From: Oscillospiraceae bacterium
Lineage (GTDB): Bacteria; Bacillota; Clostridia; Oscillospirales; Oscillospiraceae
Direction of reading: 5' to 3'
Assembly (NCBI GenBank): GCA_045645125.1
Contig: JAZRID010000266.1
Location: 1-28,009, forward strand
DNA: 28,009 bases
A model generated the notes under the pieces. The model was not told the origin of the DNA. It did not search any database and saw only the letters and a list, made by a program, of their open reading frames with translations. Both the position numbers and the translations under genes were made by a program. Shown here one piece after another: positions 2,971 through 20,190 of this stretch (its first letter is position 1; every line of letters begins with the position of its first letter).

Positions 2971-3014
2971 AGCAGTTTCCTCCTGATACGCAATCTTAAC
3001 CGATATCGCACACC

Positions 3015-3043
3015 AGTATATCACTGCAAAGCGTAATCTGCAA
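3015..3043 (-). promoter_or_regulatory. sigmaA promoter for ddl
   Basis: TTGCAG-17 nt-TATACT with an extended TG. Confidence 0.65.
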
Positions 3044-3070: not shown

Positions 3071-3916
3071 TTACGGCAACAATCCCAGTCGGCGCAAGCT
3101 CAACTCGTACTCCGCCATCCACTGCTCTAACTGCGCCGCAAATTCCTCCTGTGAGAACTGGAACTCGGTTGCCCACTGCTCCAGTGTGAGGAGCTGTTCC
3201 AGATAGTCCTGTGTGATTTCCAACATGGCATCTGCTTTCTCAAATTCGCCCTGTACACGCAAATCTTCTATCTGGCGCGCGATATCGGATGAGAGCTGTG
3301 TCTGTGCCTGTTGCACCGCAAAGCGGTTCTGTGCCGCCGTATTCTGAATGGAACTATACTGTTCCTGTCCGATGCCACCGCGGTCGCCACGCAACTCGGC
3401 ATACAGCGCGGCATTGTCCATCGCCTGTCGTTCCTGTAGGGAGATACTCTCCGCCTGTTCCCGAAACTGTCCCTGTGTGTTCTGCCAGACATTCTCCAAC
3501 TCTGTCACCGCCTGCTCCACTGCACGGTCAATCGTCGCCTTTTGCTGTTCCTCTGCCGCCTCTTTCCACGCATCCAACAGAGCTTTCATCCGTTCGGTAT
3601 CCGTGTTTTGCTCGCTTCCCTGCTCCACAGGCATTTCCACAGGAACCGTCGGGACTTCTGTATTGGTCGGGTTATTTGCCACAACAGGCTTCGCGTCTGG
3701 TTGCGTGTCAATAGGCACAGTCTGCTCCGTCAGTTGCTCGTTCTGTTTCGGGGATAGCGCAGTCTGTTTCATCCCTGTATCATTCGCCATCAGAGAAACC
3801 GCTTTGCGCTTTGGCTGTTCAGGTAGCGGTATCTCCCCTCGCTTCGGAATACGGACTGCCGACACCCCTCGCTCTGGGAATGGTACGACAGAAAATTCTT
3901 TTGGATTCACTACCAT
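3071..3916 (-). CDS. Coiled-coil protein, possible internal virion (ejection) protein
   Basis: SD GAGGAG before ATG 3916 (the track's TTG at 3925 overlaps the lysin stop). Pro-rich N-terminus, Q/E/A-rich helical C-terminus with an ELRGDRGG motif. Confidence 0.5.
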   Translation of the reverse strand: MVVNPKEFSVVPFPERGVSAVRIPKRGEIPLPEQPKRKAVSLMANDTGMKQTALSPKQNEQLTEQTVPIDTQPDAKPVVANNPTNTEVPTVPVEMPVEQGSEQNTDTERMKALLDAWKEAAEEQQKATIDRAVEQAVTELENVWQNTQGQFREQAESISLQERQAMDNAALYAELRGDRGGIGQEQYSSIQNTAAQNRFAVQQAQTQLSSDIARQIEDLRVQGEFEKADAMLEITQDYLEQLLTLEQWATEFQFSQEEFAAQLEQWMAEYELSLRRLGLLP

Positions 3917-3921
3917 ATACT

Positions 3922-4554
3922 TCAACTCCTCTCTAGTGCGCCTGCACGGTCGAGTATCACCAGCAGACGCACCATATCATACGGCAGGTCAAGGCTTTCG
4001 CCATCGCCATATAAACATCCCTGCTCTACCAACTTGCGAATCGTCGGTTGCGCCCAAATCGGGCATTGTTCCACGGTAGCATAGCGCATCCGTTCTTTCT
4101 GTTTTTCTTCATTCTCCCCCCAACAGGGCATCGTGGGTGGCAGTTTCCCTGCGAGAATCATCTGGCTTGTCCACTCCCCACCGTTATCCCACTGGATATG
4201 TGGCATATCCACGAAACTTTTCCAGTCGCCGCCCCAAGAGAAGCCCATCTCCTTGGCGATGGCTCCTGCCTTCTGGAAAAAGGCGGTGTCGTCATATTCT
4301 TGTCCCTTGACATTCTTGCAAAAGTCGAACGCAAGGCCTGCGGTATCCGCATGGAAAGTCGGCGTTCTGCCGTTGGTCACGATACTGCCAGGTCTGGTGC
4401 GTCCCTGCGCGTACAGGTACTCTTGGTACTCCTTGTCACGCACGGTATTCGTCACCAGTACATTCAGCCCGACTGCCTTGCACCGTTCCAACCATTTACG
4501 GCAATTCTGCTCCACATCATCGCGCAACAGCGCGATATCTCTACTATTCAGCAT
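3922..4554 (-). CDS. Endolysin, M15 family (L-Ala-D-Glu peptidase-like), with a short C-terminal cell-wall-binding-like domain
   Basis: Motifs RxxxYQxxLYAQGRT, H-x6-AFD, WGGDW and DMPHIQ; located directly after holin-like genes. Confidence 0.9.
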   Translation of the reverse strand: MLNSRDIALLRDDVEQNCRKWLERCKAVGLNVLVTNTVRDKEYQEYLYAQGRTRPGSIVTNGRTPTFHADTAGLAFDFCKNVKGQEYDDTAFFQKAGAIAKEMGFSWGGDWKSFVDMPHIQWDNGGEWTSQMILAGKLPPTMPCWGENEEKQKERMRYATVEQCPIWAQPTIRKLVEQGCLYGDGESLDLPYDMVRLLVILDRAGALERS

Positions 4555-4753
4555 GGGTATTTCCCTCCTGTTTCTTCTGGCTCTGCGTGCCGAAGTAAAA
4601 CGAAATCACCATGAGAAAAACCGTAAGGAAATCCTGCGCGGTAACATCACGGCGCAGTGCCAGCACTGCAAACACCGCCGTCAGTGCGATGGTGACGATA
4701 CTCTTGACCGACAGCAGTGCTGTCACACGCTTGCTCAGCTTGTCCTCTGTCAT
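4544..4753 (-). CDS. Holin-like protein with two TM helices
   Basis: 69 aa from ATG 4753; two hydrophobic segments, FYFG motif, basic C-terminus; overlaps the lysin start. Confidence 0.75.
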   Translation of the reverse strand: MTEDKLSKRVTALLSVKSIVTIALTAVFAVLALRRDVTAQDFLTVFLMVISFYFGTQSQKKQEGNTHAE

Positions 4754-4772
4754 GTTGTTCCCTCGCTCTCTC

Positions 4773-5195
4773 CTATCCACGAAAAGACCGCTCCCGCAGA
4801 CATTGCTCATACTGCTCACAGATGACCTCCTGCGCTACCTTGGTCTTTTCATTGATAAAACCGGGGTGATTTTCACAGTAGTTGTTGTAGGCGGTAATAT
4901 CCATGAGGATAAGGTCGAAGTGTTCCTTGCTATGGCGCGTATCACCATATAATTCATCCGCAAAGCGTTGAATCCGCATCCGTGCGGCCTTAATCTCACT
5001 CTCCTCCTGCCGAATTTGGAGGTCGGCCACCAGTTGATTCAACTTGTCCATCTGCCGAATGGTCTCCCCGTTAAACAGTCGTCCCAGTGCCGACAGCGGT
5101 TTAATTTTCACCTTGGATATCTCGAAGAAATAGCCGAGGATACCTAACACCACCATACCAATGGTGATAATATCACTCCATCCGAATGCTATCAT
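4773..5195 (-). CDS. Phage lysis-module membrane protein (holin-associated family)
   Basis: N-terminal TM helix, then RIQRFADE...KEHF...YC...HP pattern recognised from Firmicute prophage lysis cassettes. Confidence 0.65.
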   Translation of the reverse strand: MIAFGWSDIITIGMVVLGILGYFFEISKVKIKPLSALGRLFNGETIRQMDKLNQLVADLQIRQEESEIKAARMRIQRFADELYGDTRHSKEHFDLILMDITAYNNYCENHPGFINEKTKVAQEVICEQYEQCLRERSFRG

Positions 5196-5207
5196 CTAGT
5201 TCCTCCC

Positions 5208-5792
5208 TTAGCTCTGCGCCGTACCAAAGGCGACCCACTGATAGGTCTGTTCCGCACTGTTGTTCATCGCCGTAGCCGCAATAGGTTTTTCCGACGACAG
5301 ACTCCACGAGAGAGAACCATCTTTGGCGGTAAAGCAAATCGTTCCATAGTCAGTACTGATATCCTCACCCATCCACAGACACCACCCCTCTTTCACCGCC
5401 ATTCCTTGATAGTTGTACAGGCCACAGTCGAGGTTATCGCCTTTCGTCCGCATCAGTACCACCTGTGGTTGGAAACCAGGGGTCTGAATGGCACGGGATT
5501 TCGTTCCATCACCGCGGTAACTGCCACAGGCCATCATAGTACGGCTCGCCAATGTTTGCATCCAAGCCTGTTGCACCGTCTGGATATTTTGCGTATTTTC
5601 CTGTCGCACAGTGGCAATCTCCTGCATAATATCGCGTTGGAACGCGCTGATGGCCTGTGTATTTTCGGTAATCTTCTGTGCGTTCGCCTGTAGTGCTGTA
5701 TCAATTGCCTGTGCATTTTCGTTGAACGGTGTCAACGACAGGGAATCGCCACTCTCTGGCAATTTCAGTTGATAGTGTTTCGTTGTTTTCAT
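5208..5792 (-). CDS. Short tail fibre-like protein
   Basis: N-terminal TKHYQLKLP...D...NENAQAID anchor motif, coiled coil, and C-terminal GSYRGDG...GFQP domain. SD AAGGAG. Confidence 0.7.
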   Translation of the reverse strand: MKTTKHYQLKLPESGDSLSLTPFNENAQAIDTALQANAQKITENTQAISAFQRDIMQEIATVRQENTQNIQTVQQAWMQTLASRTMMACGSYRGDGTKSRAIQTPGFQPQVVLMRTKGDNLDCGLYNYQGMAVKEGWCLWMGEDISTDYGTICFTAKDGSLSWSLSSEKPIAATAMNNSAEQTYQWVAFGTAQS

Positions 5793-5802
5793 ATTCCTCT
5801 CC

Positions 5803-8388
5803 TTATCGCAGTGGCTCTATTGTCGCATATCCACGCTGTCCAAGGGGACCACTGACCACAATGGGTTGTAGTGGTCTGGCGGTAATCGGGAACAGTGCAT
5901 GGGGGGCTTTAATTAAGATGTATAGCCACGCACTGGACACCAGACTTTCCCATGTGTGAAACTCCCACGGCAAACTCGCCCAAGTTTCCGTCACATACAG
6001 GATGCCACCCGTGCTGTTCTGGCAATACTGCAACTTCAGCATCTCATTGAGATAGTAGTCCGCCTTTTCCCGCGCACCAATCGCCCGAAGCAGGCACACA
6101 TACCCCAGCGTTCCCTCCGACCAGATGATATCAGGCGGATTCGTATAGCCGATGGCATAAGGTTTCACCCCATCCACCGTTGCACCGCTGTAGCGCGTGT
6201 TGTAATGTTCCTCCTCCTGCGACACCACGATACTCTTGTCCTGCGTGGCATAGACCGTTTCGACGGTGTTTGCAATCTCCCGACTGTACTGCATCCCCAG
6301 AATGGACAACAGCGTTTTACCAGCCCAAGTACAGCAGTCCACCGCCCACGCGCCATCTACACCATCTACGCCCACGCCTTGATAAAACCGTGCATTTTCC
6401 GCATCGTATAGTGTGGTAAACAGTGCTTGCTTGACCAGAGCCGCCGCTCTTTTGTACTTTTCATCGCCCAGCACCAGTGCCAATTCTGTGAGGGCCTGTA
6501 GTGCCGAGCAGTTATGCTCCGTACTGCACCACGCAATCTCCTGTTCTATGTAGGTGTAGTCCTCGTTATAACTGCCGTAGCCACCCGTCAACAGTCCGTA
6601 GCGTGGGTCGTTTCCATCGGTGATTTGTCGGTTGACCAACCAATCCCCTGCCCTACGGATAACATCCAAATACGAGGCATCCCCTGTCTGCAAGGTGTAG
6701 TAGCACATTCCATGCACCAACCACCCCACTGCGCCTGTGCGTACATACCCCTCAAACAATTGTCCAATGTAATTGTCGTAACTAAAGTTAAACGAACCAT
6801 CCTCGTGTTGTTCCATACGCAGTCGCTTCATCATTTCTACGCACAGGTCATAGTCCTCCGATATGGTAAATGCCAGTAACGCTAACCCCACATCGTAAAG
6901 GAAGCACCGACTGTTCAGCACATATCCGTATAGGTTCATGGCGGTGCTACCATCTTTATCGTACTGGGGGTCATCGTTTGGAATGAGATAGGAGGCAGGG
7001 AATCTGCCCGCTATTATGTTAGAGGTGCCACCGCACAAACCAACCACCGTATACCCAGTATCGGTCGTATGGGTCAGTTTTGCGATTTTCCGTCCTTCCT
7101 CTGCCGAGTTTGTAAAGAAAAATGCAAGGTCATTGACTGTGTACACTTCACATTCCGCTGTCAAATACTCGGTATCGGTGTAAACATAAAATCTTCCTTT
7201 GTAGTCGGCGTATCTGGCATACGGACGGTCCAAAATTTCGTCCGATATTAAGATTGGAGTAAGCACCGTTTCGACTACACCAGCAGTAGCTCCATCCGTA
7301 TTCGGTACCGTTTCGTCAGCTGGGATATCAAAAATTGGAATACCATCCCAATTCCGTTTCACCAGCCGAATATCCTTAAAACTATTGCTGTTCACGCTGA
7401 CGGGGTCCACGCGGTAATATGTGACGATTTCCGTGTCATATGTTTCTACGACTTTCGTTAATTTCTCCGTTTTCCATGTCCCATCAGGATGCAACGCACA
7501 GGAACAAACGAAATACGGTTGGTCTGTCACCTCATACACATCTACTGCGTATTGCGTGTAATCGTCTAACCCACTCCATTTGCCAGAGATAACACCGCTG
7601 TAGTCTGGGGCAATGAAGTTGTCCACAGAAAGGTGTTTGGGTTCTATGCGTTTGTCACCATCACTAAAACCTGACACTTCACACCACATGAACCGTCCTG
7701 TGTAATCGTTGTCGTACTTCTCACCGAATGACAAAGTATGCGTGAATCGAGAAACATTCATTTGCCGCTTGATAAACGCTAGTGCGTCATCGGCAGCGAT
7801 GTTGGGGTCGTAGTCCCATACGCTCGTTTTCTCGTCGGCAGTGATACCGGAGATACCAATAATCTCGCCATCACTAACTCTGCGTACCTTGGCAAGTTTC
7901 GTGCCATATCGCGCTTTATTGCTATAGAAACGGTAGCGACCACCGACACACCAAACTTTACAAGTATCTTGTAAGTATTCCATGTCAGTAACGCTGTAGA
8001 GGTCCACCACATAGTCCGTCAAATAGCGGTAGCCGTAGTCCACAATACCGCCGTTTCCATCGACCAGACGAATCTCTTTACAGCCAGTATCTGCGGTTGC
8101 CTGCCAGAATCCACCCACAGGACAGAGGACACTCTCCACCAGACGCACTTCCCCTGTCACGCTGTACACTTCAATTTGGTAGGTACTGCGCTCCTCCTCC
8201 GTCAAGTCGCGCCATGTCCCTGTGATTGTGCCTGCGTAGTCCGCGCCATACGGCAAATCCACCGCCAAATACCGCTGACCGCTATACGCCAGTTCTCCCA
8301 ACTGGGGCACTTGTTCCAATGTACCGCTGATAAGGTTTTGGACATAGTCATCCGCATAGTCCGCATCAAAGCGAACATTTACCCTCAT
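5803..8388 (-). CDS. Large putative tailspike: duplicated beta-rich N-terminal modules plus a C-terminal (alpha/alpha)6 glycosidase-like barrel
   Basis: ATGA overlap with the upstream gene; internal repeats; helical repeats with QHEDGSF, STEHN and WSEGT motifs. Confidence 0.6.
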   Translation of the reverse strand: MRVNVRFDADYADDYVQNLISGTLEQVPQLGELAYSGQRYLAVDLPYGADYAGTITGTWRDLTEEERSTYQIEVYSVTGEVRLVESVLCPVGGFWQATADTGCKEIRLVDGNGGIVDYGYRYLTDYVVDLYSVTDMEYLQDTCKVWCVGGRYRFYSNKARYGTKLAKVRRVSDGEIIGISGITADEKTSVWDYDPNIAADDALAFIKRQMNVSRFTHTLSFGEKYDNDYTGRFMWCEVSGFSDGDKRIEPKHLSVDNFIAPDYSGVISGKWSGLDDYTQYAVDVYEVTDQPYFVCSCALHPDGTWKTEKLTKVVETYDTEIVTYYRVDPVSVNSNSFKDIRLVKRNWDGIPIFDIPADETVPNTDGATAGVVETVLTPILISDEILDRPYARYADYKGRFYVYTDTEYLTAECEVYTVNDLAFFFTNSAEEGRKIAKLTHTTDTGYTVVGLCGGTSNIIAGRFPASYLIPNDDPQYDKDGSTAMNLYGYVLNSRCFLYDVGLALLAFTISEDYDLCVEMMKRLRMEQHEDGSFNFSYDNYIGQLFEGYVRTGAVGWLVHGMCYYTLQTGDASYLDVIRRAGDWLVNRQITDGNDPRYGLLTGGYGSYNEDYTYIEQEIAWCSTEHNCSALQALTELALVLGDEKYKRAAALVKQALFTTLYDAENARFYQGVGVDGVDGAWAVDCCTWAGKTLLSILGMQYSREIANTVETVYATQDKSIVVSQEEEHYNTRYSGATVDGVKPYAIGYTNPPDIIWSEGTLGYVCLLRAIGAREKADYYLNEMLKLQYCQNSTGGILYVTETWASLPWEFHTWESLVSSAWLYILIKAPHALFPITARPLQPIVVSGPLGQRGYATIEPLR

Positions 8389-9233
8389 TCACTCTCACTC
8401 CCCTCGCCATTTGGCATGGCACAGTAGGCAGAAATGGCAATGGTCGCGCTGATATTCTCCCCACTCTGGTTCGTCACAGTCACCGTACCGCCGTAATATC
8501 CCATCTCAGCCTGCAACGCTTCCACTTGCAGTGTCAATCCCTCGTGGTTCACATACGGGATAAACACTGGCACATCGGCATAGCTCTGCGAGAAATAGAA
8601 CGGCAACGCCTGTGTCGTGTCCGAGCTGTAAGCCAGTGTACCGTACTCAATGCAATACGGCATTTCTGGCGTACTCGGTGTACTCGGCGTACCAATCCCA
8701 CCGCCATTTTCCAACAGTTTCTTCATTTCCTCCAGTGCCTCTGTTGCAGTTACAGCACTCTCACTCGCCAACTGTGCGGCTGTTTCTGTGCGCTGTACCA
8801 ATGCTTGCATCCCGTCATCGTATATACCGAGTGCCTCATAGATACGCTGTAGCTTGGCCATAATCTGCTCATAGATACCATCTGCAGGATTTCTCGCATC
8901 GCCCCCTGGCTCCGAACCTTCTCGTACCATGCCCAGCGTATCCCAAACACTCGTCATAATCTCGGTATCTGCGCTCACACCGTATACGCCCACTTCCAAC
9001 TGTCGCCCGATATGTTTACGGGTCAACAGTTCCCACGGCAACATACAGCAGTCATTCTCATCCACCAGTTCCGTGTGGGTTGTTGCGCCCACACGGAACA
9101 CAGCGGTTTTACTGAAGGGATGCCAGCTTTTATCGAAAGTGAAGTGGCATTTCTGGACATCCACCGCACCGACATACAGTGGCTCTGTGTCCTGCACGCT
9201 CACAATTTGACCGTCTACTTTTATCGCAATCAT
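8385..9233 (-). CDS. Tail/fibre protein with BppU-like N-terminal domain
   Basis: Pattern FTFDKSW...KTAVF...C.LPWE...VGVYG...P..GIYEQI typical of clostridial phage tail proteins. ATG 9233 has SD GGGGTG (alternative GTG start at 9242). Confidence 0.7.
   Translation of the reverse strand: MIAIKVDGQIVSVQDTEPLYVGAVDVQKCHFTFDKSWHPFSKTAVFRVGATTHTELVDENDCCMLPWELLTRKHIGRQLEVGVYGVSADTEIMTSVWDTLGMVREGSEPGGDARNPADGIYEQIMAKLQRIYEALGIYDDGMQALVQRTETAAQLASESAVTATEALEEMKKLLENGGGIGTPSTPSTPEMPYCIEYGTLAYSSDTTQALPFYFSQSYADVPVFIPYVNHEGLTLQVEALQAEMGYYGGTVTVTNQSGENISATIAISAYCAMPNGEGSESE
8668..8693. repeat. Three imperfect 9-bp tandem repeats encoding a TPSTPSTP linker
   Basis: GGCGTACTC-GGTGTACTC-GGCGTACC. Confidence 0.8.
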
Positions 9234-9247
9234 TTCGCTCACCCCCC

Positions 9248-9805
9248 TTACAGTCCGAAAAATACGATTTTCCCTGCATAGGATTGGTCCGTCGCCAGTG
9301 TGATACTGCCATCGGGATTATAGGTGACGCGGGTCGTCGCCGCGCCCCATGTACCGCTTCGATAGGTATTGTCCACCAGCTGATAAATGGTATAGCCGAA
9401 CGCCGAACGATTTCTCTTGTGTTCACTCGGCGCGATGGTCAGCGTCGCACCACCTGCCATAGAAAACCAGCTCCACTTTTGGAATTTCACTTCCACGCTC
9501 TGCACCGACAGTGGCACGCCACCGCCTGCCATCGTATCCATTTCCTCCTGTATGTGTGCGAGCGTTGCCGCGTGGGTGTCCAGTACACTCTGCATCGTTG
9601 TCGCCAGACCATTTTCGTCTGATGCGCCGAGGGAGGTGGCAGCAGTCTGTCCCTCCAATGTCGTCAGCAGTGTATTGATAAACTCCTTGACGGCATTCGG
9701 GTGATACTGCATATCTGCTCGTACCTGCACCTCACTGCTCTCATAGGTCGGAAAATCCTCCGCCCTTGTCCAATCTCGTTCATAGGTCAGTCTTGTAAAT
9801 GCCAT
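9248..9805 (-). CDS. Phage tail-associated structural protein (fibre anchor or needle-like)
   Basis: Directly follows the nozzle gene; N-terminal helical/coiled segment and beta-rich C-terminus. Confidence 0.5.
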   Translation of the reverse strand: MAFTRLTYERDWTRAEDFPTYESSEVQVRADMQYHPNAVKEFINTLLTTLEGQTAATSLGASDENGLATTMQSVLDTHAATLAHIQEEMDTMAGGGVPLSVQSVEVKFQKWSWFSMAGGATLTIAPSEHKRNRSAFGYTIYQLVDNTYRSGTWGAATTRVTYNPDGSITLATDQSYAGKIVFFGL

Positions 9806-9808
9806 TCT

Positions 9809-11668
9809 TTATCGTTCCCTCCCTTGATAGCGGTAGAATACCTGTGCGGAGATAACCGCCATATCCATACCAATTTCGTGATTACTCAACTCCATCGTAA
9901 AGTGGCGCACATGGCGACAGTTCGGTTTTCTTCGCGCCACGGTCGTAAATGCGTTCACACGCAAATCGCGGAAAGAGAGGTCATAGGGACACAGTCGCCA
10001 ACTGGTTGAACGCACTGGGGTCAAGTCCTTGCGATTCTCATAGTCCGTCATATAGGTGACATCCAGACTGGTATTCGTATCGCCACGCACCGCAAAAATA
10101 ACGCTCACGATATCCTTCAGGCGGTCATAGTCGCCCAGATACTGCGCCGCAAAGCGATATTTTTTCTCGATGGCCGTATCATAGTCCTGAAAATTACGGC
10201 ACATCGCGCTCACTTTTCCCTCTCCATCCAGATGCACGGTCGTTCTTCCTGCATTCAAAAAGGACTTCGCAGGGATATTCGTAAAGTAAAACCACACGGG
10301 ATTTGTGTAATTACTCAGTGCGTAGTCCCAGCAGTACACCTCACCGTCCGCCGCCAACCAGTACCGCTCTCCGTCGTCGTGACTACAAACCTGTTGTGCG
10401 TTTCGCAGGAGTGGCAACAAACCGTTATCCACTTTCCGACTCATGGGCGTAATATTATTTTCATAGGCAGACGAGCTATCCCGTACGATACAAATACCAT
10501 TTCTCGTACTGGCAAACACCAGATTATTCTCAATCAGTTGGATGCTCCTCGGCAGGTCACAGCCAATTGCCGCGTTAATCGCCGTATAGTTCATCGTGAG
10601 CAGGACGCGCCCATTCGCCATCTCTGTCATACTCAGGGTACTGCGTCCAATACTGCGCTCTTTGAAAATCACCAGCATATTCTGCTGTCTACCAAATCCT
10701 GTGATGGCATCCTGGGCATCCCCTGCAAAATTATATTGCTCCATGGGGAAGTAACCGGGGTCCATCACCGCATGGTTGCCACACCAGAAGTAGGCATTCG
10801 GCTGTGTCGCACCACCGCCCAGCACCACGCACACATTTTGGTCGCCACCGTACACCGTGGCACAGGGGCAGTCCATCACACTGCGGTATACTGTGGGGTT
10901 CGCCTTGGTATATGTAATCTGCACCGTATTGACGCGAACGGGTGCATGGTGGGGTGGCTCTACAGCAAAAGTCACTATTCCTGCGCCAAGGTCCACCTGA
11001 TACCCCTCGCCTTTGGTCAGGATAGTGCCATCCACACGCACCTCGTCCACACTTTCGACCGCCTGCACGGGCAAGTGGTACGCATTCACACCTGCGACGG
11101 TGGAATACCACACCGTTTTTTGGGCACTCAACCGATTTTCACTCTGGTATTCGTCACCCTGCGCTGTCGTGGGGTCTGTATTGATAAGAATAATCGGGGT
11201 ATACGCCACCACTTCCTCACAGGTGACAGTCGTACCATTCACCGCAATACCGTAGTAACCGCCTTGATTTTTGTAATACAGTTTCTCGCCATAGCGGAAC
11301 CAAGTGCCTGCACTCTCCCCCACACCACTGCGAATCTCCTGTAACACCACGCCGTTTTTTAGCATCGTCACCACATCCGTCTGGGGGATATACGCGCTAT
11401 ACAGCTTGTCCCCGCTGTGGAAAAAGGCATGGTCACGGAATACGCCTTCATAGGCGGTGTGCCCTATTCCACGCACTGCATCGTTCAAGTACACCTGCCC
11501 ATCTCGTGAGCACAGCGCACCATTCTGCCACCAGAGATTTTTCATCTCTGGACTTTCATTCGCATCCAGTCGATAGCCCAGTTCCCAAGTATTCAGTCCA
11601 CCGTCCAGTCTGGGAAAGCGTATCGTGTACTCTCTACTCGGCGGACTGGAAACTTTTATGCGTGCCAT
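9809..11668 (-). CDS. Podovirus tail nozzle (tail tubular protein B / P22 gp10-like)
   Basis: N-terminal FPRLDGGLN...NESPEMKNL...GALCSRDG signature; beta-propeller-like composition; follows the adaptor gene. SD AGGAGG. Confidence 0.75.
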   Translation of the reverse strand: MARIKVSSPPSREYTIRFPRLDGGLNTWELGYRLDANESPEMKNLWWQNGALCSRDGQVYLNDAVRGIGHTAYEGVFRDHAFFHSGDKLYSAYIPQTDVVTMLKNGVVLQEIRSGVGESAGTWFRYGEKLYYKNQGGYYGIAVNGTTVTCEEVVAYTPIILINTDPTTAQGDEYQSENRLSAQKTVWYSTVAGVNAYHLPVQAVESVDEVRVDGTILTKGEGYQVDLGAGIVTFAVEPPHHAPVRVNTVQITYTKANPTVYRSVMDCPCATVYGGDQNVCVVLGGGATQPNAYFWCGNHAVMDPGYFPMEQYNFAGDAQDAITGFGRQQNMLVIFKERSIGRSTLSMTEMANGRVLLTMNYTAINAAIGCDLPRSIQLIENNLVFASTRNGICIVRDSSSAYENNITPMSRKVDNGLLPLLRNAQQVCSHDDGERYWLAADGEVYCWDYALSNYTNPVWFYFTNIPAKSFLNAGRTTVHLDGEGKVSAMCRNFQDYDTAIEKKYRFAAQYLGDYDRLKDIVSVIFAVRGDTNTSLDVTYMTDYENRKDLTPVRSTSWRLCPYDLSFRDLRVNAFTTVARRKPNCRHVRHFTMELSNHEIGMDMAVISAQVFYRYQGRER

Positions 11669-11680
11669 ACGCTCCCCTCC

Positions 11681-12286
11681 TTACTGTGCATACGCATCCT
11701 CGACAACCCCACATTCCGTATGGGGGTGCTTTTGCAACTGTGCCAATCGCGTCTGATATTCCGTATGGAGAGTGGAAAACAGGAAAGTATCCTCCTGCAT
11801 CACCAGACAGGATGCCACATAGTACGGCAGAGCCATCTGCACCGCTGGAATATTGTCCAGTTCATCTGTATCCCTTGGCGCACTGCCCAACAATCTGGGA
11901 TAGCGGAAATACTCCACATACAGTTCTCCAGACATCCCTTTCGGCACAGCAAACTGCTGATTCCCCACCAGATGATAGCGATGGAACCGCTGAAACAGTT
12001 CACCATCATAGCGAATCAGACCTGTACTGCACATCTGCCAACAGTCTTTTGGCAGGGTATACACCAACCACGCGCCATTTTCATCACAGCGCAGGGCGGT
12101 CAATGGCTCCAGATGTCGAATCGGTGCAACGGTCGTGGCAACCTGCACCTGTGCATCGTCCAACAGCTTCGGAATCCGCGCCAGCGCATCCGCCTGATTG
12201 TTATAATGGATTGGCACAGGCGTTCCTGCCACGCTATACTGCCCAATCAGCTGTAGCGCAAAATCTCTTGCCCATTGATAAGTCAT
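11681..12286 (-). CDS. Head-tail adaptor (tail tubular protein A / P22 gp4-like)
   Basis: About 200 aa, helical termini, YTLPKD and YFRYP motifs, and ALPYYVAS near the C-terminus; lies just upstream of the nozzle gene. Confidence 0.7.
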   Translation of the reverse strand: MTYQWARDFALQLIGQYSVAGTPVPIHYNNQADALARIPKLLDDAQVQVATTVAPIRHLEPLTALRCDENGAWLVYTLPKDCWQMCSTGLIRYDGELFQRFHRYHLVGNQQFAVPKGMSGELYVEYFRYPRLLGSAPRDTDELDNIPAVQMALPYYVASCLVMQEDTFLFSTLHTEYQTRLAQLQKHPHTECGVVEDAYAQ

Positions 12287-12298
12287 GCCTCTCCCCCC

Positions 12299-14143
12299 TT
12301 ATCTGTCCTGTTGTTGGAGTTGTCGCAAGGCATTTTTCGCCACGGTAGGCAAACCGCTATACTTCGTCTGCATCCCGACGGGCAGTGTCGCCACTGTCTT
12401 ATCCTCGCTCAGAGGACCACCAATCAACGGCTGTTCTTCCCCGCGGTTCCGCACGGCAGACTGCTTTTTCTCCACAGCATTCCGCTCAATTCTTTGTCGC
12501 ATCTCCTGCACCAATTCGGCCTTGCGCGGAATCAATTTGTCGGGGATACGCTCCAGATAGTCGATAATCTCCAAAGTACCATCGCGGCGCAAATTATCCA
12601 AAGTCTGCACCATTGCAATTTCACTGTAGTAGGTCGTTGCACCTGCATTCACGCGCACATTAAACCACAAATTTTTGAACTTGCTAAAGTCGTACGACTG
12701 TGCCACACGGCGTGTCACACTGTTCGTTTTCATGCGACCCGTTGCGCTGTCAATGACAGGTATCTGCTGTCCGTTGGTTGCCAGTTCCTCAAATCTACGG
12801 TCACGCACCACAGTACGCACGCCGTAATAAGTCCCCATCATATCTAGCAAAATCGCGCCGATATCCTCCAACCACTCGTACAACCCTGCACGAATATTTT
12901 CCAAAGGCACTTCCGCACTGGACTGTAGCACCATCAGCGCGCTGGTATTGTCTGGTCTGACATTGCCCAGCTGTGCATCCGTTGCGCCCAGGCAGTCCTT
13001 CGTATAGCTCACCGCCTTGTCGATAGCCATAATAATCTGGTTCGACATATCCGCAGGTTGTAGATTATACGCCACCTGTGAAATACTCTGTCCAGGCATC
13101 AGACCACGCACACCAATCGCCTGTCCCACCTCGTTACTCCACTGGCTAATTAAATCCGCGTTATAGACTGTCTTGGGGAAGCCCATCAGCTGTAGGTGGC
13201 GCATCACCATCGCAAACATGGTGTTAATAAAAATCTGATTTGGGATAATCCCTGTGACAAGGGCACGGCCGTGGTACTGATTTTTCTGTCGTTCCCAGTT
13301 GCCCCATGCAATTGGATAGCGACGCAGACCCGTATCGATCTCCTCATAGATGACACAATTCTTTGTGGCTTTTGTGACACGAACCGTACCATCCTTCTTT
13401 TCATACAGATACACATACAACGCCTTGCCGTTTTCATCGTCACTATTCAGTTCGGTTCTACCGCCAATGCCCACCTGTTCTAATACATCACTATCTGCGT
13501 CAATGACATTCCAGTGGTCTTTCGTTTCGTGTATTCTGCGTTCCGCCTCCAGATTCTCCACACTGTCACGGCCTACAATCAGGATATACGGCTGTTTTTC
13601 TACATCTGCAACATTCGGATTGCCAAACATCACATTGATGCCATCCACCAATTCCATGCAGATTTCTCCGCGCTGTTTTCCAAACGCACCGCCGTAGGGA
13701 ATCGCATTGGCATCCCAGTAAAAATGAGCGCAGTAGTCGCCCGTCTGTGCGCCGTCAAACAGTGCCTCACGGATGCGGTAGTCCATCTTGAATTTTTCCA
13801 ACAGGTTTTGGACCTCTGCCGTTGCAATCGCGGCCGCATTTTCGCCCTCTTTTCCACCGTGGGAAGTATCTGAACTGGCATAATAGCTCAATTCATCGAA
13901 ACTAATGGACGCGGCACTACTGGTCAGACTGGCAACGAACAGGCTCGCCACACGCTTCACAATATTAAAGGTGGGCTTGGGTAACTTCTGCATCGCCCCT
14001 GTGTGTGGCAGATTTATCCACTGATTTCCCGAAAAAAATTCAACATTCGTATTCACGAGGTCATACTGGTTCGGGACAAGGCGCGTGTTATAGGTACGCC
14101 CCTGTTCATACCGTTCCCATGCCTTTGTCATTTTTTCGCTCAC
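12299..14143 (-). CDS. Portal protein (P22-like)
   Basis: 614 aa; FFSGNQW, PTFNI.KR, NQIFIN and GATDAQLG segments resemble podoviral portals. GTGA overlap with the upstream gene. Confidence 0.8.
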   Translation of the reverse strand: MSEKMTKAWERYEQGRTYNTRLVPNQYDLVNTNVEFFSGNQWINLPHTGAMQKLPKPTFNIVKRVASLFVASLTSSAASISFDELSYYASSDTSHGGKEGENAAAIATAEVQNLLEKFKMDYRIREALFDGAQTGDYCAHFYWDANAIPYGGAFGKQRGEICMELVDGINVMFGNPNVADVEKQPYILIVGRDSVENLEAERRIHETKDHWNVIDADSDVLEQVGIGGRTELNSDDENGKALYVYLYEKKDGTVRVTKATKNCVIYEEIDTGLRRYPIAWGNWERQKNQYHGRALVTGIIPNQIFINTMFAMVMRHLQLMGFPKTVYNADLISQWSNEVGQAIGVRGLMPGQSISQVAYNLQPADMSNQIIMAIDKAVSYTKDCLGATDAQLGNVRPDNTSALMVLQSSAEVPLENIRAGLYEWLEDIGAILLDMMGTYYGVRTVVRDRRFEELATNGQQIPVIDSATGRMKTNSVTRRVAQSYDFSKFKNLWFNVRVNAGATTYYSEIAMVQTLDNLRRDGTLEIIDYLERIPDKLIPRKAELVQEMRQRIERNAVEKKQSAVRNRGEEQPLIGGPLSEDKTVATLPVGMQTKYSGLPTVAKNALRQLQQQDR

Positions 14144-14397
14144 TCCGCCTCACCTCCCTGTAGGATATCCATGTTTGCCATGCCATACGCCGTATCTTGG
14201 TTGTAACGAAGCATCTCCTCAAACGCCTGTTGCTGTGCCACCAGCTGTCTGTTCTGTTCCTGCGTCCATTCTTCCGCCGTCTTTCTTCTGCTATAGTGGC
14301 GGAACATCTCATGCGCTTTCCAGCCCCAATATCCGCCGAGCAAGAGCAGTCCGAGGACAGCTACCATACCGCCTGCGCCATACATCAGGTAAATCAC
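14140..14397 (-). CDS. Small single-TM phage protein
   Basis: SD GGAGG; N-terminal hydrophobic helix; translationally coupled to the portal gene. Confidence 0.7.
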   Translation of the reverse strand: MIYLMYGAGGMVAVLGLLLLGGYWGWKAHEMFRHYSRRKTAEEWTQEQNRQLVAQQQAFEEMLRYNQDTAYGMANMDILQGGEAE

Positions 14398-14425
14398 ATC
14401 ATCGCCTCCCTGCTTTTGATTTCAT

Positions 14426-14451
14426 GCCTCCCCCTGCGAACAAGGGGAGGC
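14426..14451 (-). promoter_or_regulatory. GC-rich hairpin after the capsid gene, with no U-tract (mRNA stabiliser or attenuator)
   Basis: GCCTCCCCTTG-TTCG-CAGGGGGAGGC on the minus strand, 11-bp stem with one G-U pair. Confidence 0.65.
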
Positions 14452-14463
14452 GTTTGGCTTTTA

Positions 14464-15585
14464 TCAACCGATATGCAGGATGGCATCACCGACGGCGATG
14501 GGCATACCCTCCGCATCGACCTCGACCACACGCACGATGGCATGACCGTCAGAGGGGGTAACTTCCCTGCTGTTGCCACTCAGTTCGGTCCACTCCGCGG
14601 TGGTAATCTCACTTCCATAGGTAACAGCAGTCAGGTTGTCGGCAGACGCGGCGGTAACATAGTAACGCTTGTCGCCCTCCTTCTCACTGCTCACGATGAT
14701 GGTGCTCTTACCGTTGGCAGACGCGGCGGTGCCAACGATGAGGTCCTTCAGCACAGGCTGAGAGCCGTGGTAGTAGATGGCATCCGCCTTTTCGCTCAAC
14801 ACGAAGCAGTCATAGATGAGGCGACCCTCGACCAACCAACCAGAGATGCCAGGAGGATTGTCGTGAATCTTGTAGTCGCTCAACTGCTTGGGGGCGGTGG
14901 AGGCAATCTTATGGGTAATCAGGAATGCCGCACCAGCAGGCAGTCTGCTGGAGGGAACTTTCACAATCTTACAGCCGTCCACCTCACCGATAACGCCCTT
15001 TTCGAGCATCTCCTGTCGTTTGTCGCCGTAGTTGACAAACGCACTGTCCTGCTTCAGGAAGTTGGCAAACTTATAGGAGCAGAAGCACACGCGACCCTTG
15101 TCGGGTACATTGTGGTTGCCCAGATACTCCATACCATTCAGAAATGCCTCATACGCATTGTTCTTGGTAATGGCGGTGGTGGCATACGCGCCATGCTTGG
15201 TGGCCGCCGCCGCGAGGGTCTTAAACACATAGGTATCAAACTCAGGCACGCACACCTCACGAATCTGGCGGTTCAACGCCTTGCCAGCATCGCTCACCAT
15301 CTCGCTCTGGAGCTTATCACCCTTGTCGATGATAAAGGTAAACGCTCTGTCGCGTCTGACCGTCAGCTCCTGCACATTGCGCGTCAAATCGCTCGCACTG
15401 CCGTAGCGGTTCGCGCCACTGCGCTGGTAGTCGCCCATCGGGACAATGGGCACGGAATAGACCTTGACGGTCTGTACACCAGTAAACTGGTGGTCGTTAC
15501 TCAGGGCCAGCACCGCCTGACTTTCACGGTGGAAACGCTCATCCACCTGCTTGCTGTACTTACTTGCGAGGTTAATCATAGGCAT
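14464..15585 (-). CDS. Major capsid protein (N4-gp56-like HK97 fold) with a C-terminal extension
   Basis: Pattern INLASKYS..VDERF, DY.RSG.NRYG, RDRAFTFIID and GWLVEGRLIYDCFVL. SD AAAGGAG. Confidence 0.9.
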   Translation of the reverse strand: MPMINLASKYSKQVDERFHRESQAVLALSNDHQFTGVQTVKVYSVPIVPMGDYQRSGANRYGSASDLTRNVQELTVRRDRAFTFIIDKGDKLQSEMVSDAGKALNRQIREVCVPEFDTYVFKTLAAAATKHGAYATTAITKNNAYEAFLNGMEYLGNHNVPDKGRVCFCSYKFANFLKQDSAFVNYGDKRQEMLEKGVIGEVDGCKIVKVPSSRLPAGAAFLITHKIASTAPKQLSDYKIHDNPPGISGWLVEGRLIYDCFVLSEKADAIYYHGSQPVLKDLIVGTAASANGKSTIIVSSEKEGDKRYYVTAASADNLTAVTYGSEITTAEWTELSGNSREVTPSDGHAIVRVVEVDAEGMPIAVGDAILHIG

Positions 15586-15609
15586 GATACTATCTCTCCT
15601 TTGTTATCG

Positions 15610-16059
15610 TTAGTCCTCGGCAAAGAGGCCTTCCAGGAAGGGGTCTTTGCCCTTGGCATTGGTACTACCGCCCAGCACCGTACCCTTGACGGGTGCCTTA
15701 TTGGCGGCGGTCATATTCTGTTTCAGAATCTCATTCTCTCGACGCATCTGCTCCAGTTCCTCCTGTGCCTGTCGCATCGCGTACTCGGCATAGGCGACCT
15801 GCAAGGGGATATGTTCCTTGACGCAGGTGGCAATGACCGCCTTTGGCAGACCTTCGCCCTGTGCAAAGCCATGACGCAGATGGGGATGGCGTTCCAGCAG
15901 GGCAGTCACCTCACGGCGAAACTCCTCCGCCGTCATGCCATTCTTCTGCTCGGCATAGGACAGCTTTTCTCTGCCGTCCTCCTCATACGCCTGTGCCGTG
16001 CCAATCCAACTCTTTTCGCACACAGGCATGGTCATCATTTCTTTCTGTTTGTTCTTCAT
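15610..16059 (-). CDS. Short capsid scaffolding protein
   Basis: Directly upstream of the capsid gene; coiled coil, then a flexible tail ending DPFLEGLF. SD AAGGAGG. Confidence 0.7.
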   Translation of the reverse strand: MKNKQKEMMTMPVCEKSWIGTAQAYEEDGREKLSYAEQKNGMTAEEFRREVTALLERHPHLRHGFAQGEGLPKAVIATCVKEHIPLQVAYAEYAMRQAQEELEQMRRENEILKQNMTAANKAPVKGTVLGGSTNAKGKDPFLEGLFAED

Positions 16060-16068
16060 ACTTCCTCC

Positions 16069-17565
16069 TTAGAAATAACAGGTTGAATAGGTATCATACA
16101 GGGCATCTCCGTCCAGTGTGATTCGGGTCAACTCGTCCTCCTCATCACTGGATGCCACTATATTTTCTTGGTATTCTCCCGAGGCGTGGAGCAAATAACT
16201 GATGGCCTGTGTCGCGCTGTCCACCATGTCATCATGTTTCCCAACTGGAAAAGCTGTGAACTGGTCCACAAACGCACCAACCCACTCCTCTCCTCGAGGC
16301 AGGTAGATATGTCCCGACTCAATCGCTGGGGAAACTGCATTCACACGCGCCTCTTTTCCGCCCAACGGTGTCACTGGCACACAGAACATCTCTTTCTGCA
16401 AAGTTTGTATGATGGCACTGCCGTTCGCCTTGTCCTCAATCAAGACGGTCAACGCCTGCGGATACAGCGTACGCACCATACGAATCGCGCGGATAGTCTG
16501 GGGAAAATCCATATGTCTATTCAGGCAGTAGCGCAAGTAGTAATCATTTCCCATTTTGCCCCACACCTCAATCGCAACGAAGTCGTTCCGCTCTCCACCC
16601 TTGAAGGCGGCATCCACGGAGATAACCTCTCTGGCAAACCGTGTGATTTGGTCGGTATCGTAGTACCGCCACCAACTGCGCTTTACCAGTCCCCCCTCCT
16701 CCACACGGGGCGCGCACTGATACAGTGCTGTCCATGCGCGCTCTCCGCCCTGTGCATCGCTCAGGTAACTGCGTTTGAACTGTTGTAGCCACTTGTTATC
16801 TTTCCCCAGTTCTGGGCACAGTGCCTCTCCCACCGCACGCCCCAACGGGTCATCCTCCTCCGCCTCCACAGGCAGACGCACCAGACGAATATTCTCCTCT
16901 GCCACCAACAATCTGGCCGCCAAATCATCCTCGTGCCACGGTGTCATAATCACGACTACCTTCGCACCAGCCGCCAGACGCGACTTCAGCGAACTCAGCC
17001 ACTCGTTCCAAATCTGGGCACGGCGCGACTCACTGTCCGCCTCAGTGCGATTTTTAATCGGGTCGTCGATAATCAGGAGATTCGCACTATTGCCCGTAAT
17101 CCCAGCCAGCATACCACGGCTAATCAATCGCCCAGGTACGCACCCCTTGTTTGCTTTCAGCTCAAACTCTGTCGCACGGTTAATCGGGCCAATGGTAACC
17201 CCAAACAAAATCTCTCCAAAGGTACTCACTTTTTCCTTGTTCCGTCTGGCAAATCGCTCCGCGCTATCATCGTTATAACTCGCGAGAATCACGCGCCAGT
17301 TCGGATGGCGACCCATGCACCAACTTGGGAGAGCCTCTGTCACATTCATACTCTTTCCATGTTGGGGTGGTGTTTCCAGAATCAGGATATCGTACGCGTT
17401 CCCCGTATCGGTTTCTACAAACTTCTGCAACTCCTGCGCCACATAGGTAGCAAATCGAGTACGCTTCCACCCCTCTCCGTTGACATAGGCGAGGTAATCA
17501 ATGTAATTTCGTCTAGCCAATTCGCGCCGTGCCAATTCTGCGCGGATGCTCTGTGTCGCGCTCAT
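16069..17565 (-). CDS. Terminase large subunit
   Basis: Walker A PPQHGKS, Walker B LLIIDDP, coupling motif IMTPWH, and nuclease motifs SVDAA and HDDMVDS. Confidence 0.95.
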   Translation of the reverse strand: MSATQSIRAELARRELARRNYIDYLAYVNGEGWKRTRFATYVAQELQKFVETDTGNAYDILILETPPQHGKSMNVTEALPSWCMGRHPNWRVILASYNDDSAERFARRNKEKVSTFGEILFGVTIGPINRATEFELKANKGCVPGRLISRGMLAGITGNSANLLIIDDPIKNRTEADSESRRAQIWNEWLSSLKSRLAAGAKVVVIMTPWHEDDLAARLLVAEENIRLVRLPVEAEEDDPLGRAVGEALCPELGKDNKWLQQFKRSYLSDAQGGERAWTALYQCAPRVEEGGLVKRSWWRYYDTDQITRFAREVISVDAAFKGGERNDFVAIEVWGKMGNDYYLRYCLNRHMDFPQTIRAIRMVRTLYPQALTVLIEDKANGSAIIQTLQKEMFCVPVTPLGGKEARVNAVSPAIESGHIYLPRGEEWVGAFVDQFTAFPVGKHDDMVDSATQAISYLLHASGEYQENIVASSDEEDELTRITLDGDALYDTYSTCYF

Positions 17566-17873
17566 GCCTCCTCCGCCACCTGTGCGGCGATGGCGCGCAA
17601 CGCATCATCGGTTAGTTCCGACAGGTCCAACTCCGCCAGCTGGACTGCTGTGTTCTCCTTGTCGCACGCCTGCGCCAACGCAGTATCACGCAAATATTTC
17701 GCCGCCTGCACATCCCCTGCTGCCGCTTTCTCGCCCAACTCCAGATGAATGGCATTCAGCAAGGTATTCTCCACGCCCAATTTTTTTAGATGGGCGCGTC
17801 GCTCCTTATCGGACACTGGCAACTCCAACACCGCGCGAATACTGGTATAAAACGGACATTCCCCATTTGCCAT
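17562..17873 (-). CDS. Terminase small subunit-like protein
   Basis: 103 aa from ATG 17873 (SD GGAGGTG); AAAGDVQAAKYL oligomerisation-type motif and C-terminal LSELTDDALRAIA; ATGA overlap with terL. Confidence 0.7.
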   Translation of the reverse strand: MANGECPFYTSIRAVLELPVSDKERRAHLKKLGVENTLLNAIHLELGEKAAAGDVQAAKYLRDTALAQACDKENTAVQLAELDLSELTDDALRAIAAQVAEEA

Positions 17874-17879
17874 CGGCAA

Positions 17880-18338
17880 TCACCTCCTCTCTGTCCCCTC
17901 CTCCCACTTTTTTTCCTCATGCCACAGCTCCTGTGCCACTTCCAAGGCCTCTGCGTGCAGGCGGAGCAGATGCCTGTGGGAGTAGAACAGACCGTCATCC
18001 GCCAAAGCATCCTGAATTTCCGTCCAGCTTTTCCCTACATCCAGATACCTGCGTTGCAGGATTGTACGGTGTACGCGTTTCGGTACACGGGCTACGAAGG
18101 CCTCCACGCGCCGATAGCTCTCCAACTCCTCATTCACCACAGTCAACTCGCGCTTGTGCTCGTCGTCAATCAAGCGCGAAAGTTTTCGGGCTACTGCTCC
18201 TTTTTCCAGGCGTAGATTCTTACGCCGTTCATCCAGTGCATCCAAACGCCGATGCAATCGCTGTACTTCCAGCGTTGCCGACGTGGCAGACTCCAGAAAC
18301 TGTACCATCGCACACATTTCATTCGTCGCGTTTCTCAT
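17880..18338 (-). CDS. RinA/ArpU/DUF1492-like transcriptional activator
   Basis: 152 aa from ATG 18338 (SD GAGGAG); C-terminal sigma-region-4-like ILQRRYL...SWTEI...YSHRHLLRLHAEAL; canonical position just before terS. Confidence 0.75.
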   Translation of the reverse strand: MRNATNEMCAMVQFLESATSATLEVQRLHRRLDALDERRKNLRLEKGAVARKLSRLIDDEHKRELTVVNEELESYRRVEAFVARVPKRVHRTILQRRYLDVGKSWTEIQDALADDGLFYSHRHLLRLHAEALEVAQELWHEEKKWEEGTERR

Positions 18339-18501
18339 ACGGTATCCACTCCTCACTTGCATAAGTTCCGCCCCAGCACTGTTCGCATTGGGTTCGCGCA
18401 ATGTTCTGGCAGTTTCGTGCTGGTGCGCCACGGAAATACTCCCCTGGGCAACCATACGCACCGCCGTAAAACGCATCATTCACCGCCTGCGGTTGACGCA
18501 T
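18319..18501 (-). CDS. 60-aa Cys-rich protein, possibly metal-binding
   Basis: SD GGGAGG 8 nt before ATG 18501; GCP-x11-C-x6-CxxCW pattern; overlaps the activator start. Confidence 0.65.
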   Translation of the reverse strand: MRQPQAVNDAFYGGAYGCPGEYFRGAPARNCQNIARTQCEQCWGGTYASEEWIPYEKRDE

Positions 18502-18616
18502 CTGTAATTCCTCCCGATAACTCTGTTTCATCGCTACTGCCTACCCTGTTTTTTTGGTATCCGTCGGTATCGAGATGTGTCTGTGCATGGCCAAACAGCT
18601 CGTCCGCTGTGCCCCC

Positions 18617-18645
18617 ATAATAGATGGCGCACTCTGCCGCGTCAA
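18617..18645 (-). promoter_or_regulatory. sigmaA-type promoter of the virion operon
   Basis: TTGACG-17 nt-TATTAT, with an A-rich UP-like tract upstream. Confidence 0.75.
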
Positions 18646-18710
18646 TAGTTTTTCTTAATCTTGGCTTGAATTGGCACATCAGTATAAAGTTTTTCTTTAC
18701 ATTCTAAACA

Positions 18711-18744
18711 AATAAAAAATCCTCTCTTTCCGCACAAAGAGAGG
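18711..18744 (-). terminator. Second intrinsic terminator downstream of arcD
   Basis: 9-bp stem CCTCTCTTT/AAAGAGAGG followed by ATTTTTTATT on the minus strand. Confidence 0.75.
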
Positions 18745-20185: not shown

Positions 20186-20190
20186 TGCAA

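Follow-up and report, generated by a model that had tools for sequence, protein, structure and literature searches.

A podovirus-derived particle and lysis operon behind the arc genes of Candidatus Pelethomonas as a candidate gene transfer agent-like element

What has a bacterium kept when phage head, tail and lysis genes stand in its chromosome without genes for phage integration or replication? The question is raised by positions 3071-18645 of the minus strand of contig G000:C266 from an Oscillospiraceae bacterium, where 18 co-oriented, tightly packed genes with start/stop overlaps form a single operon. The window analysed was this whole 28-kb contig (28,009 nucleotides) from a 72%-complete metagenome-assembled genome (MAG), here G000, which its nearest relatives place in Candidatus Pelethomonas (Oscillospiraceae); its sequence was present in public runs from bovine and other ruminant gut metagenomes. 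An initial annotation had described 17 genes and proposed a domesticated podovirus-derived gene transfer agent (GTA) or other host-controlled particle. Co-orientation, overlaps and the named genes held while the count rose to 18, and the proposal of a domesticated, podovirus-derived, host-controlled locus gained support from synteny, co-divergence, selection and a predicted LexA operator in most lineages. We consider it reasonably probable that the locus is a podovirus-derived operon for particles and lysis, domesticated and fixed in its host, ancestrally gated by the SOS response and GTA-like, and probably an element of the kind that was first reported from gut bacteria in 2026. That it makes particles, responds to SOS induction, and packages and transfers DNA to recipients we infer from the genes. 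Coordinates are on the minus strand unless stated.

The cluster lay directly behind the host genes arcA-otc-arcD in all eight lineages in which it was found, the conserved synteny that the initial annotation had proposed to look for. These lineages comprised four genomes (G000, G035, G001, G018) and four metagenomic lineages from independent assemblies (P0001, P0005, P0006, P0016). Capsid homologues with >80% identity were detected in four of the 49 species genomes of the genus (G000, G001, G018 and G035), and the carriers were mutual nearest kin by arcD (83-98% compared to 70-75% for the rest), with RecA agreeing more weakly (94-100% among carriers compared to ≤92% for the others). A query with the cysteine-rich microprotein (Cys) encoded by the first gene against 5.8 billion proteins returned 18 clusters, and all contexts looked up belonged to the four further lineages, with the gene order trxB-arcA-otc-DcuC-Cys-g3-g4-TerL-scaffold-capsid-portal-adaptor-nozzle. 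A tree of the element (g4, TerL, major capsid protein and portal) recovered the same groupings of the eight lineages as a tree of the flank (arcA, otc and arcD), and pairwise distances of element and flank were strongly correlated (Mantel r 0.94, p 0.0008), the element evolving ~1.65 times faster. The agreement of trees that had been suggested as a check was thus found with the linked flank and was weak for RecA. The capsid tree did not separate arcD-linked from full-phage copies. The GC content at third codon positions (GC3) of the element followed that of its host in each species; it did not separate the element from full phages, as both follow the host. Order-level portal matches (24-41% identity) were rejected as unrelated phages sharing only the portal.

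No copy of the element was found at any other site, and the arcD-linked type was absent from IMG/VR viral contigs, where only the full-phage type with a phrog_606 small terminase (TerS) was seen. Scans of the open reading frames (ORFs) of the cluster with PHROG, Pfam and NCBIfam profiles returned no match to integrase, repressor or replication families, in line with the initial annotation. An integrase, a repressor, a replication module and attachment (att) sites, the marks of an intact temperate prophage, were all absent from the window, and all were present in the sister phages described below. The content is the reverse of that of a phage satellite (phage-inducible chromosomal island [PICI], capsid-forming PICI [cf-PICI] or P4-like), having a full virion and lysis set and no integrase or replication genes. 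Direct repeats of ≥9 bp joining the two cluster junctions were not found, which bears out the earlier statement that att repeats were lacking; the companion statement that insertion sequence scars were lacking needs amending for a TnpB fragment 2.5 kb away at the contig end. A tRNA search of the window found none. In outgroup species the DcuC homologue (70-75%) stood mostly in another context, so no clean empty site was definable, and low-depth bovine-gut contigs showed no excision joint and no empty-site joint, the latter an outcome named beforehand as contrary to domestication. These results bear on whether the locus might be a small autonomous temperate phage, replicated and integrated by functions of the host or by unrecognised ones. 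Room for such functions exists in the small ORFs with no assigned function (Cys, g3, g8, g12 and g15), but the missing att repeats and tRNA target, the shared site and congruent phylogeny in eight lineages, the lack of copies elsewhere or in viral contigs, and the ~20 kb more that the sister phages need for replication and integration make this highly improbable.

Selection on the cluster was strong and general. The ratio of nonsynonymous to synonymous substitution rates (dN/dS) was 0.03-0.3 in essentially every gene and every pair of lineages (g3 0.1-0.5), with TerL, the TerS-like protein, portal and capsid among the most constrained (0.03-0.1). Between G000 and G035, synonymous divergence (dS) was ~0.24-0.6 in the element (three outliers) compared to 0.17-0.42 in neighbouring host genes, and in deeper pairs dS was saturated; the dN/dS check put forward earlier thus came out as predicted, with dS like that of the host neighbours. 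An element dS equal to host dS in unsaturated pairs, combined with low dN/dS, argues for purifying selection in place, on the replication-less form, since before the lineages split. At such divergence 15 kb of neutral sequence would not have stayed open, which again points to selection. The block from promoter to endolysin was intact in all lineages, and everything downstream of the lysin formed a deletion series. Three of the features by which Lang, Kogay and co-workers recognise GTAs and viriforms were found here: a phage-like structural cluster in the chromosome that lacks genes for replication and for integration or excision, vertical inheritance at one site in step with the host, and purifying selection on the structural genes. 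An inert prophage remnant in decay, with no current function, could account for the eroding right arm, for the decay of the LexA box in the lineage of the window and for a contig (L234) whose capsid gene runs into host sequence, but it is very unlikely given 18 intact ORFs across divergences with saturated dS, dN/dS of 0.03-0.3 in every pair (including G000 and G035 after the box decayed), and a conservation boundary that coincides with a functional unit from promoter to lysin. On L234 (12955-16247; ena:ERZ27317690:k141_575232) the capsid gene is joined directly to a host SpoIID gene, and a second contig from the same sample (L241) starts at g8-portal and holds the rest of the cluster; the pair stems either from a non-producer strain that has lost the distal two-thirds or from a branch in the assembly. 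Pseudogenisation in relatives, also named earlier as contrary evidence, was not clearly seen, apart from this one possible shortened variant. We regard it as fairly likely that the cluster is a temperate podovirus's late operon, which was fixed next to the arc genes in the common ancestor of a small Candidatus Pelethomonas clade and has been kept there by selection.

The operon has a sole sigma-70-type promoter (18617..18645; TTGACG, 17-bp spacer, TATTAT; 10 of 12 consensus matches), as previously proposed, and alignment of the arcD-to-Cys spacer showed TTGACn-17-TATTAT in all eight lineages. Between its -35 and -10 elements, P0005, P0006, G001 and G018 carry a perfect AGAAC-N4-GTTCT with differing N4 spacers, the box has one mismatch in P0016 and P0001 and three in G035, and the window holds a degenerate remnant with four mismatches (AGAGTGCGCCATCT; 18622..18635), identified by position in the alignment with relatives. 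This is a LexA (Cheo) box, and the presence of AGAACAGGTGTTG upstream of lexA in four of four genomes supports the motif as valid for the genus. LexA thus appears to control the operon in most relatives through this predicted operator, and the ancestral state predicted from the alignment is one in which host LexA directly repressed the sole promoter with no phage repressor. In the sub-lineage of the window the box has decayed, yet the genes remain constrained (G000 compared to G035, dN/dS 0.03-0.2). A palindrome (TAAAGAAAAACTTTA; 18685..18699) ~45 bp upstream of the -35 element, shared by G000, G035, P0001, G001 and G018 (five of eight lineages), may be a candidate site for g3 or a host regulator. 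Further upstream, an intrinsic terminator-like hairpin (18721..18744; 9-bp stem followed by a T run) ends the arc operon after arcD and is kept in G035 and P0001, and not in G001 or G018. It is one of two terminators that had been described as insulating the cluster; the other, after the last gene, was not found.

The first gene encodes a four-Cys microprotein of 70 aa (18319..18531) with 59-96% identity in relatives, in which the Cys residues and GCPGxYFRGA are kept; it was seen only heading arcD-linked elements and is possibly regulatory. An ORF listed earlier as g2 (18479-18679) was rejected as spurious, as it overlies the conserved promoter and the true first gene is the Cys ORF in another frame. 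Overlapping the Cys ORF by 20 nt at its start, g3 (17880..18338; 152 aa, 152-153 aa in relatives) is a putative transcription regulator by matches to phrog_36 (E 4e-7) and phrog_248 ('transcriptional activator', E 1e-3). The next gene, g4 (17562..17879; 105 aa), encodes a TerS-like protein by its position upstream of TerL and a match to phrog_2412 (unknown function); homologues stand directly 5' of TerL in many related phage loci, and it shows no relationship to the phrog_606 TerS that the sister phages encode. The earlier labels of activator and TerS thus stand as putative, by position and weak PHROG matches. Searches of Pfam, NCBIfam and a protein atlas were of no use for the Cys protein, g3, g4 and the last gene, g19, and the Cys protein also had no PHROG match; a DUF5681 lead yielded nothing.

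The particle genes proper were more readily assigned. The large terminase TerL (16069..17565) matched phrog_38 (E 3e-101) and Terminase_6N and 6C (dN/dS 0.03-0.11), and is followed by a scaffold protein of 149 aa (15610..16059) that aligns to only the C-terminal part of the sister-phage scaffold, a major capsid protein of 373 aa (14464..15585; phrog_422, E 9e-59), and g8 (14140..14397; 85 aa), which by sequence has an N-terminal membrane-type helix and is kept in all elements and sister phages. The portal protein (12299..14143) matched phrog_156 (E 5e-28) and P22_portal (E 1e-11). The nozzle and adaptor calls of the initial annotation were settled by AlphaFold2 (AF2) models and Foldseek searches. 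The model of g10 (11681..12286; pLDDT 90) matched podovirus head-to-tail adaptors (LME-1, SU10, Carin-1, T7 gp11 and N4; E 1e-6 to 1e-3), and for g11 (9809..11668; pLDDT 90, pTM 0.86), the nozzle or tail hub, the first 31 PDB matches were all podovirus tail hubs (P22 gp10, T7 gp12, Sf6 gp8; E ~1e-17, TM 0.55-0.70). As profile scans found no tape-measure, tube or sheath family among the cluster ORFs, the portal, adaptor and nozzle make up a podovirus tail architecture of the P22/T7 type.

Beside the nozzle, as across the phage family, stands g12 (9248..9805; 185 aa), a tail protein with no family match. It is followed by g13 (8385..9242; 285 aa; phrog_19695), a fibre or spike anchor with a conserved N-terminal domain and a variable C-terminus, which shares just its N-terminal ~140 aa with fibres of 512-532 aa in G001 and G018, and by the tail fibre or spike g14 (5803..8388; 861 aa; phrog_7032, and phrog_13714 'tail fiber', E 5e-19), limited to the G000, G035 and P0005 lineages. 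In place of g14, G001 and G018 have the 512-532-aa fibre and a conserved protein of 118 aa. Inside the domesticated clade the predicted receptor-binding module has been exchanged. The tail-module protein g15 (5208..5792; 194 aa) has no family match and shows 55% identity in G035 and 28-30% in G018.

Release would fall to two holin-like proteins, g16 (4773..5195; 140 aa, N-terminal transmembrane helix; phrog_37604, E 1e-21, function unknown) and g17 (4544..4819; 91 aa, two transmembrane segments; phrog_13256, E 4e-18), the latter directly 5' of the lysin in all elements, and to an M15-peptidase endolysin (3922..4554; phrog_6523 'endolysin', E 3e-38; Peptidase_M15_4). A LexA-gated promoter that leads straight to holins and a lysin, together with the loss of candidate ejection proteins, could also mean that the locus serves SOS-triggered altruistic lysis or makes a killer particle of the PBSX or colicin kind, with DNA transfer irrelevant. 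There is precedent in PBSX, a Gram-positive defective prophage that packages DNA and kills, and is not transducing (PMC12946183). We consider this improbable for the present locus, as the low dN/dS of TerL, the TerS-like protein, portal and capsid would be unexpected if DNA packaging were irrelevant, and a tailocin-type killing mechanism is not known for short podovirus tails. The operon ends in g19 (3071..3925; 284 aa), which aligns only to residues ~270-440 of a 667-752-aa protein of the full phages and shows the weakest constraint among the larger genes of the structural arm (dN/dS 0.22, with indels). The gene previously listed here as a coiled-coil protein is thus present and most likely a decaying fragment; it is probably an eroding remnant outside the selected unit.

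Complete temperate phages with homologous proteins (about 73-85% identity) were found elsewhere in G018 (C147) and G035 (C29). Identity between element and sister phages was 73% for TerL, 75% for portal and 82-86% for capsid, and homology extended to the adaptor, nozzle, g12, fibre N-terminus, holin and lysin. The G018 phage (L115+L116+L233, 34,993 bp) encodes RepA, a phrog_606 TerS, head, tail and lysis genes, and proteins of 667 and 2299 aa, the larger of which (~2300 aa; G018:C147:17728-24627) follows the smaller. Its serine integrase and helix-turn-helix (HTH) repressor are internal and phage genes stand at both ends, an arrangement that suggests a complete temperate podovirus of ~35 kb assembled in circularly permuted form and not a prophage in its integrated state; the contig ends showed no exact overlap. 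The G035 phage encodes DnaD, DnaB, ParB, RepA, TerS, head genes and proteins of 752 and 2425 aa, the latter (L111:11657-18931) matching phrog_22978 (unknown function) and, weakly, Pfam LPD3 ('large polyvalent protein'). Small contigs of the G000 MAG hold phage fragments with DnaB (95% identity), DnaD (92%) and serine integrase (80%), whereas G001 (86% complete) yielded no full phage. The arcD-linked copies of TerL grouped as one clade in the tree of this protein (support 100/98), sister to the full phages. Near-identical full prophages, which the initial annotation had taken as an outcome against its proposal, were therefore not what was found. The wider structural module is common among Oscillospiraceae phages, and among ~170 related loci there was no phage donor for Cys, g3, g4 or TerL.

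The two forms share a host genus, the same genomes and homologous virion and lysis genes, whereas the phages have a serine integrase, an HTH repressor, RepA/DnaD/DnaB/ParB and the phrog_606 TerS, and are found away from the arcD-fixed site or on a contig that is circularly permuted. The element lacks their integrase, repressor and replication genes (~20 kb extra in the phages). Its scaffold is 146-191 aa compared to 284-325 aa in the two phages, and its TerS-like g4 is 101-105 aa compared to 143-196 aa in most of the nearest phage homologues, which have 45-60 more N-terminal residues by ORF starts that are estimates. The 667-752-aa and 2299-2425-aa proteins survive in arcD-linked elements only as shortened pieces or are lost, the right arm measuring 588+895 aa in G018, 306 in G035, 284 in G000 and 136 in the P0005 lineage, with none in G001. 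It is possible, although we would not call it probable, that in Candidatus Pelethomonas a temperate podovirus was domesticated independently, and recently in evolutionary terms, to give a GTA with one operon under LexA control.

With such phages in the same genomes, the cluster could alternatively be a helper-dependent defective prophage, silent or incomplete alone and acting when a related complete phage is induced or infects. Its roles might then be to supply or exchange head, tail and lysis parts, to serve as a recombination reservoir or to interfere with phages, each of which we regard as rather unlikely, as we do the helper-dependent state itself. Related full phages or fragments do co-occur in G018, G035 and the G000 MAG, the missing large proteins could come in trans, and the tail genes of the G018 element (C146), its fibre region included, are closer to those of the co-resident phage C147 than to those of G000. 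Against this stand the separate clade of Cys, g3, g4 and TerL with no phage donor, the element's own conserved promoter with its predicted host LexA operator, the lack of a full phage in G001, and the co-divergence with the flanks, which argues for selection in situ.

Several results also weigh against a domesticated GTA-like operon, the reading we favour. All of the genomes compared are MAGs, and the host markers behind the co-divergence are physically linked to the element, with weak independent support from RecA. Near the promoter of the window there was no LexA box with ≤1 mismatch, and no other operator was recognised. In bulk bovine-gut assemblies the junctions were intact and the depth flat, which is uninformative on induction. 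The affinity of the G018 tail genes with the co-resident phage means that the locus still recombines with phages. The lost 667-752-aa and 2299-2425-aa proteins could be ejection proteins and, if they are needed, the particles may not transduce. Under the classical GTA rule a particle cannot carry its own genes. A capsid 82-86% identical to that of ~35-kb phages suggests that the head may hold more than the 15.6-kb locus, which would break that rule; evidence on head capacity is mixed, with the capsid speaking against a small head and the scaffold halved.

If the locus is a domesticated particle operon, one sigma-70-type promoter would drive all of it and, in the ancestor as in most lineages today, host LexA would bind the Cheo box that lies within this promoter until DNA damage relieved the repression. 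The four-Cys microprotein and the g3 regulator might then tune or amplify expression. Short TerS-like g4 and TerL would fill capsids bearing the P22-type portal by headful packaging, the adaptor, nozzle and fibre or spike proteins would finish the short tail, and the holins and M15 endolysin would lyse the producer cell. Having no excision or replication functions, the element would have to package chromosomal DNA, either at random or starting in situ at a pac site.

GTA-like packaging has been described in Ruminococcaceae and Oscillospiraceae (PMC12946183; Nat Commun 2026), as the initial annotation had correctly stated; a podovirus-like GTA of gut Clostridia is among the findings of that study, which makes the proposal less novel than had been assumed. 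The FpGTA of Faecalibacterium prausnitzii is podovirus-like, with two operons, ~40-nm heads and 8.5-kb cargo (PMC12946183). Compared by description, FpGTA and the present locus share a gut host of the order Oscillospirales, conservation across related species, a podovirus head, portal, adaptor/nozzle, fibre and holin/endolysin set of ~16 kb in total with no replication or integration genes, and a TerS with no evident DNA-binding domain. They differ in that FpGTA has operons of 10.5 and 5.5 kb lying ~125 kb apart whereas the operon here is contiguous, in its small heads and cargo compared to a capsid here that is close to those of ~35-kb phages, and in being near-ubiquitous in its genus whereas the present locus occurs in four of 49 species genomes. 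FpGTA particles have been seen, whereas those of the present locus are predicted from its genes, and the locus here has a predicted LexA operator. No Faecalibacterium was among the 96 TerL relatives listed from a scan of 185,579 species genomes. In mouse-gut Pelethomonas, GTA-like coverage of virus-like particle (VLP) DNA was reported with no GTA cluster by that preprint's criteria (bioRxiv 10.64898/2026.07.08.737213).

With RcGTA-type elements of Alphaproteobacteria the locus shares a ~15-kb phage-derived structural cluster, vertical inheritance, purifying selection and a reduced small terminase, and would share host regulation and release by lysis. RcGTA resembles siphoviruses and packs 4 kb into a small oblate head, is encoded at multiple loci, is governed by CtrA/GafA and quorum sensing, and is ancient and widespread, whereas the present locus is podovirus-like, single-locus, LexA-boxed and so young that sister phages still circulate. 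PBSX of Bacillus subtilis, a defective prophage of a Gram-positive host, is induced by the SOS response, packages chromosomal DNA, lyses its producer and cannot propagate, all of which the gene set here would allow; it differs in being myovirus-like and 28 kb long, in encoding an Xre repressor and the Xpf factor, and in acting as a killing particle, whereas the present locus has no repressor and a short tail. In tectivirus GIL01 (LexA with the small protein gp7) and in colicin operons, as predicted here, a lethal operon is read from a promoter that a host LexA operator overlaps, the element has no CI-type repressor, and a small accessory protein is encoded beside the switch; GIL01, however, is a replicating linear plasmid prophage and colicin operons make toxins, not particles. 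That the four-Cys protein might act together with LexA is, by this analogy, pure conjecture.

GTAs outside Alphaproteobacteria have been recognised only lately, and the first podovirus-like one from the gut was published in 2026. The locus is a concrete candidate with a simple predicted switch of one promoter and one LexA box and, if the assignment is true, would provide a structural locus for the GTA-like VLP DNA signals of Pelethomonas that lack a cluster. As the same genomes still hold active sister phages, each step of the domestication would be directly readable: loss of integrase, repressor and replication genes, N-terminal shortening of TerS, halving of the scaffold, erosion of ejection or polyvalent proteins, and takeover of the late promoter by LexA. 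If particles move chromosomal DNA after DNA damage, SOS-triggering antibiotics or inflammation would directly raise gene flow among rumen and gut Oscillospiraceae.

The direct flanks named by the initial annotation, arcD and ddl, were confirmed by Pfam. Upstream lie arcA (arginine deiminase), otc and the DcuC-family transporter 'arcD' (18800..22454; Pfam ADI, OTCace and DcuC), and downstream lies ddl (1894..3024; Dala_Dala_lig_N and C), encoding a D-Ala-D-Ala ligase. The 46-bp gap between g19 and ddl (3025-3070) holds a promoter-like TTGCAG-17-TATACT facing ddl, and as no terminator-like hairpin was found in it, transcripts of the phage operon could run on into ddl. An Rfam scan of the whole window at gathering thresholds gave 0 matches and so did not confirm a B12 riboswitch proposed for 23600-27200. 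Only G000 and G035 have ddl as the right-hand neighbour; for G001 and the P0005 lineage the neighbour is a homologue of orf338, which in the window (771-1784) has no significant family match and a weak type VII secretion system (T7SS)-associated domain (E 0.007). In the outgroup genome G022 a homologue of orf338 stands ~1 kb from the DcuC homologue, a placement that hints at the arrangement of the site before insertion. The left contig end (1-594, plus strand) holds the 5'-truncated TnpB fragment (IS605 OrfB, Cas12f-like TNB domain), of which the MAG has at least seven further copies (82-92% DNA identity), mostly at contig ends, and this repeat probably broke the assembly there.

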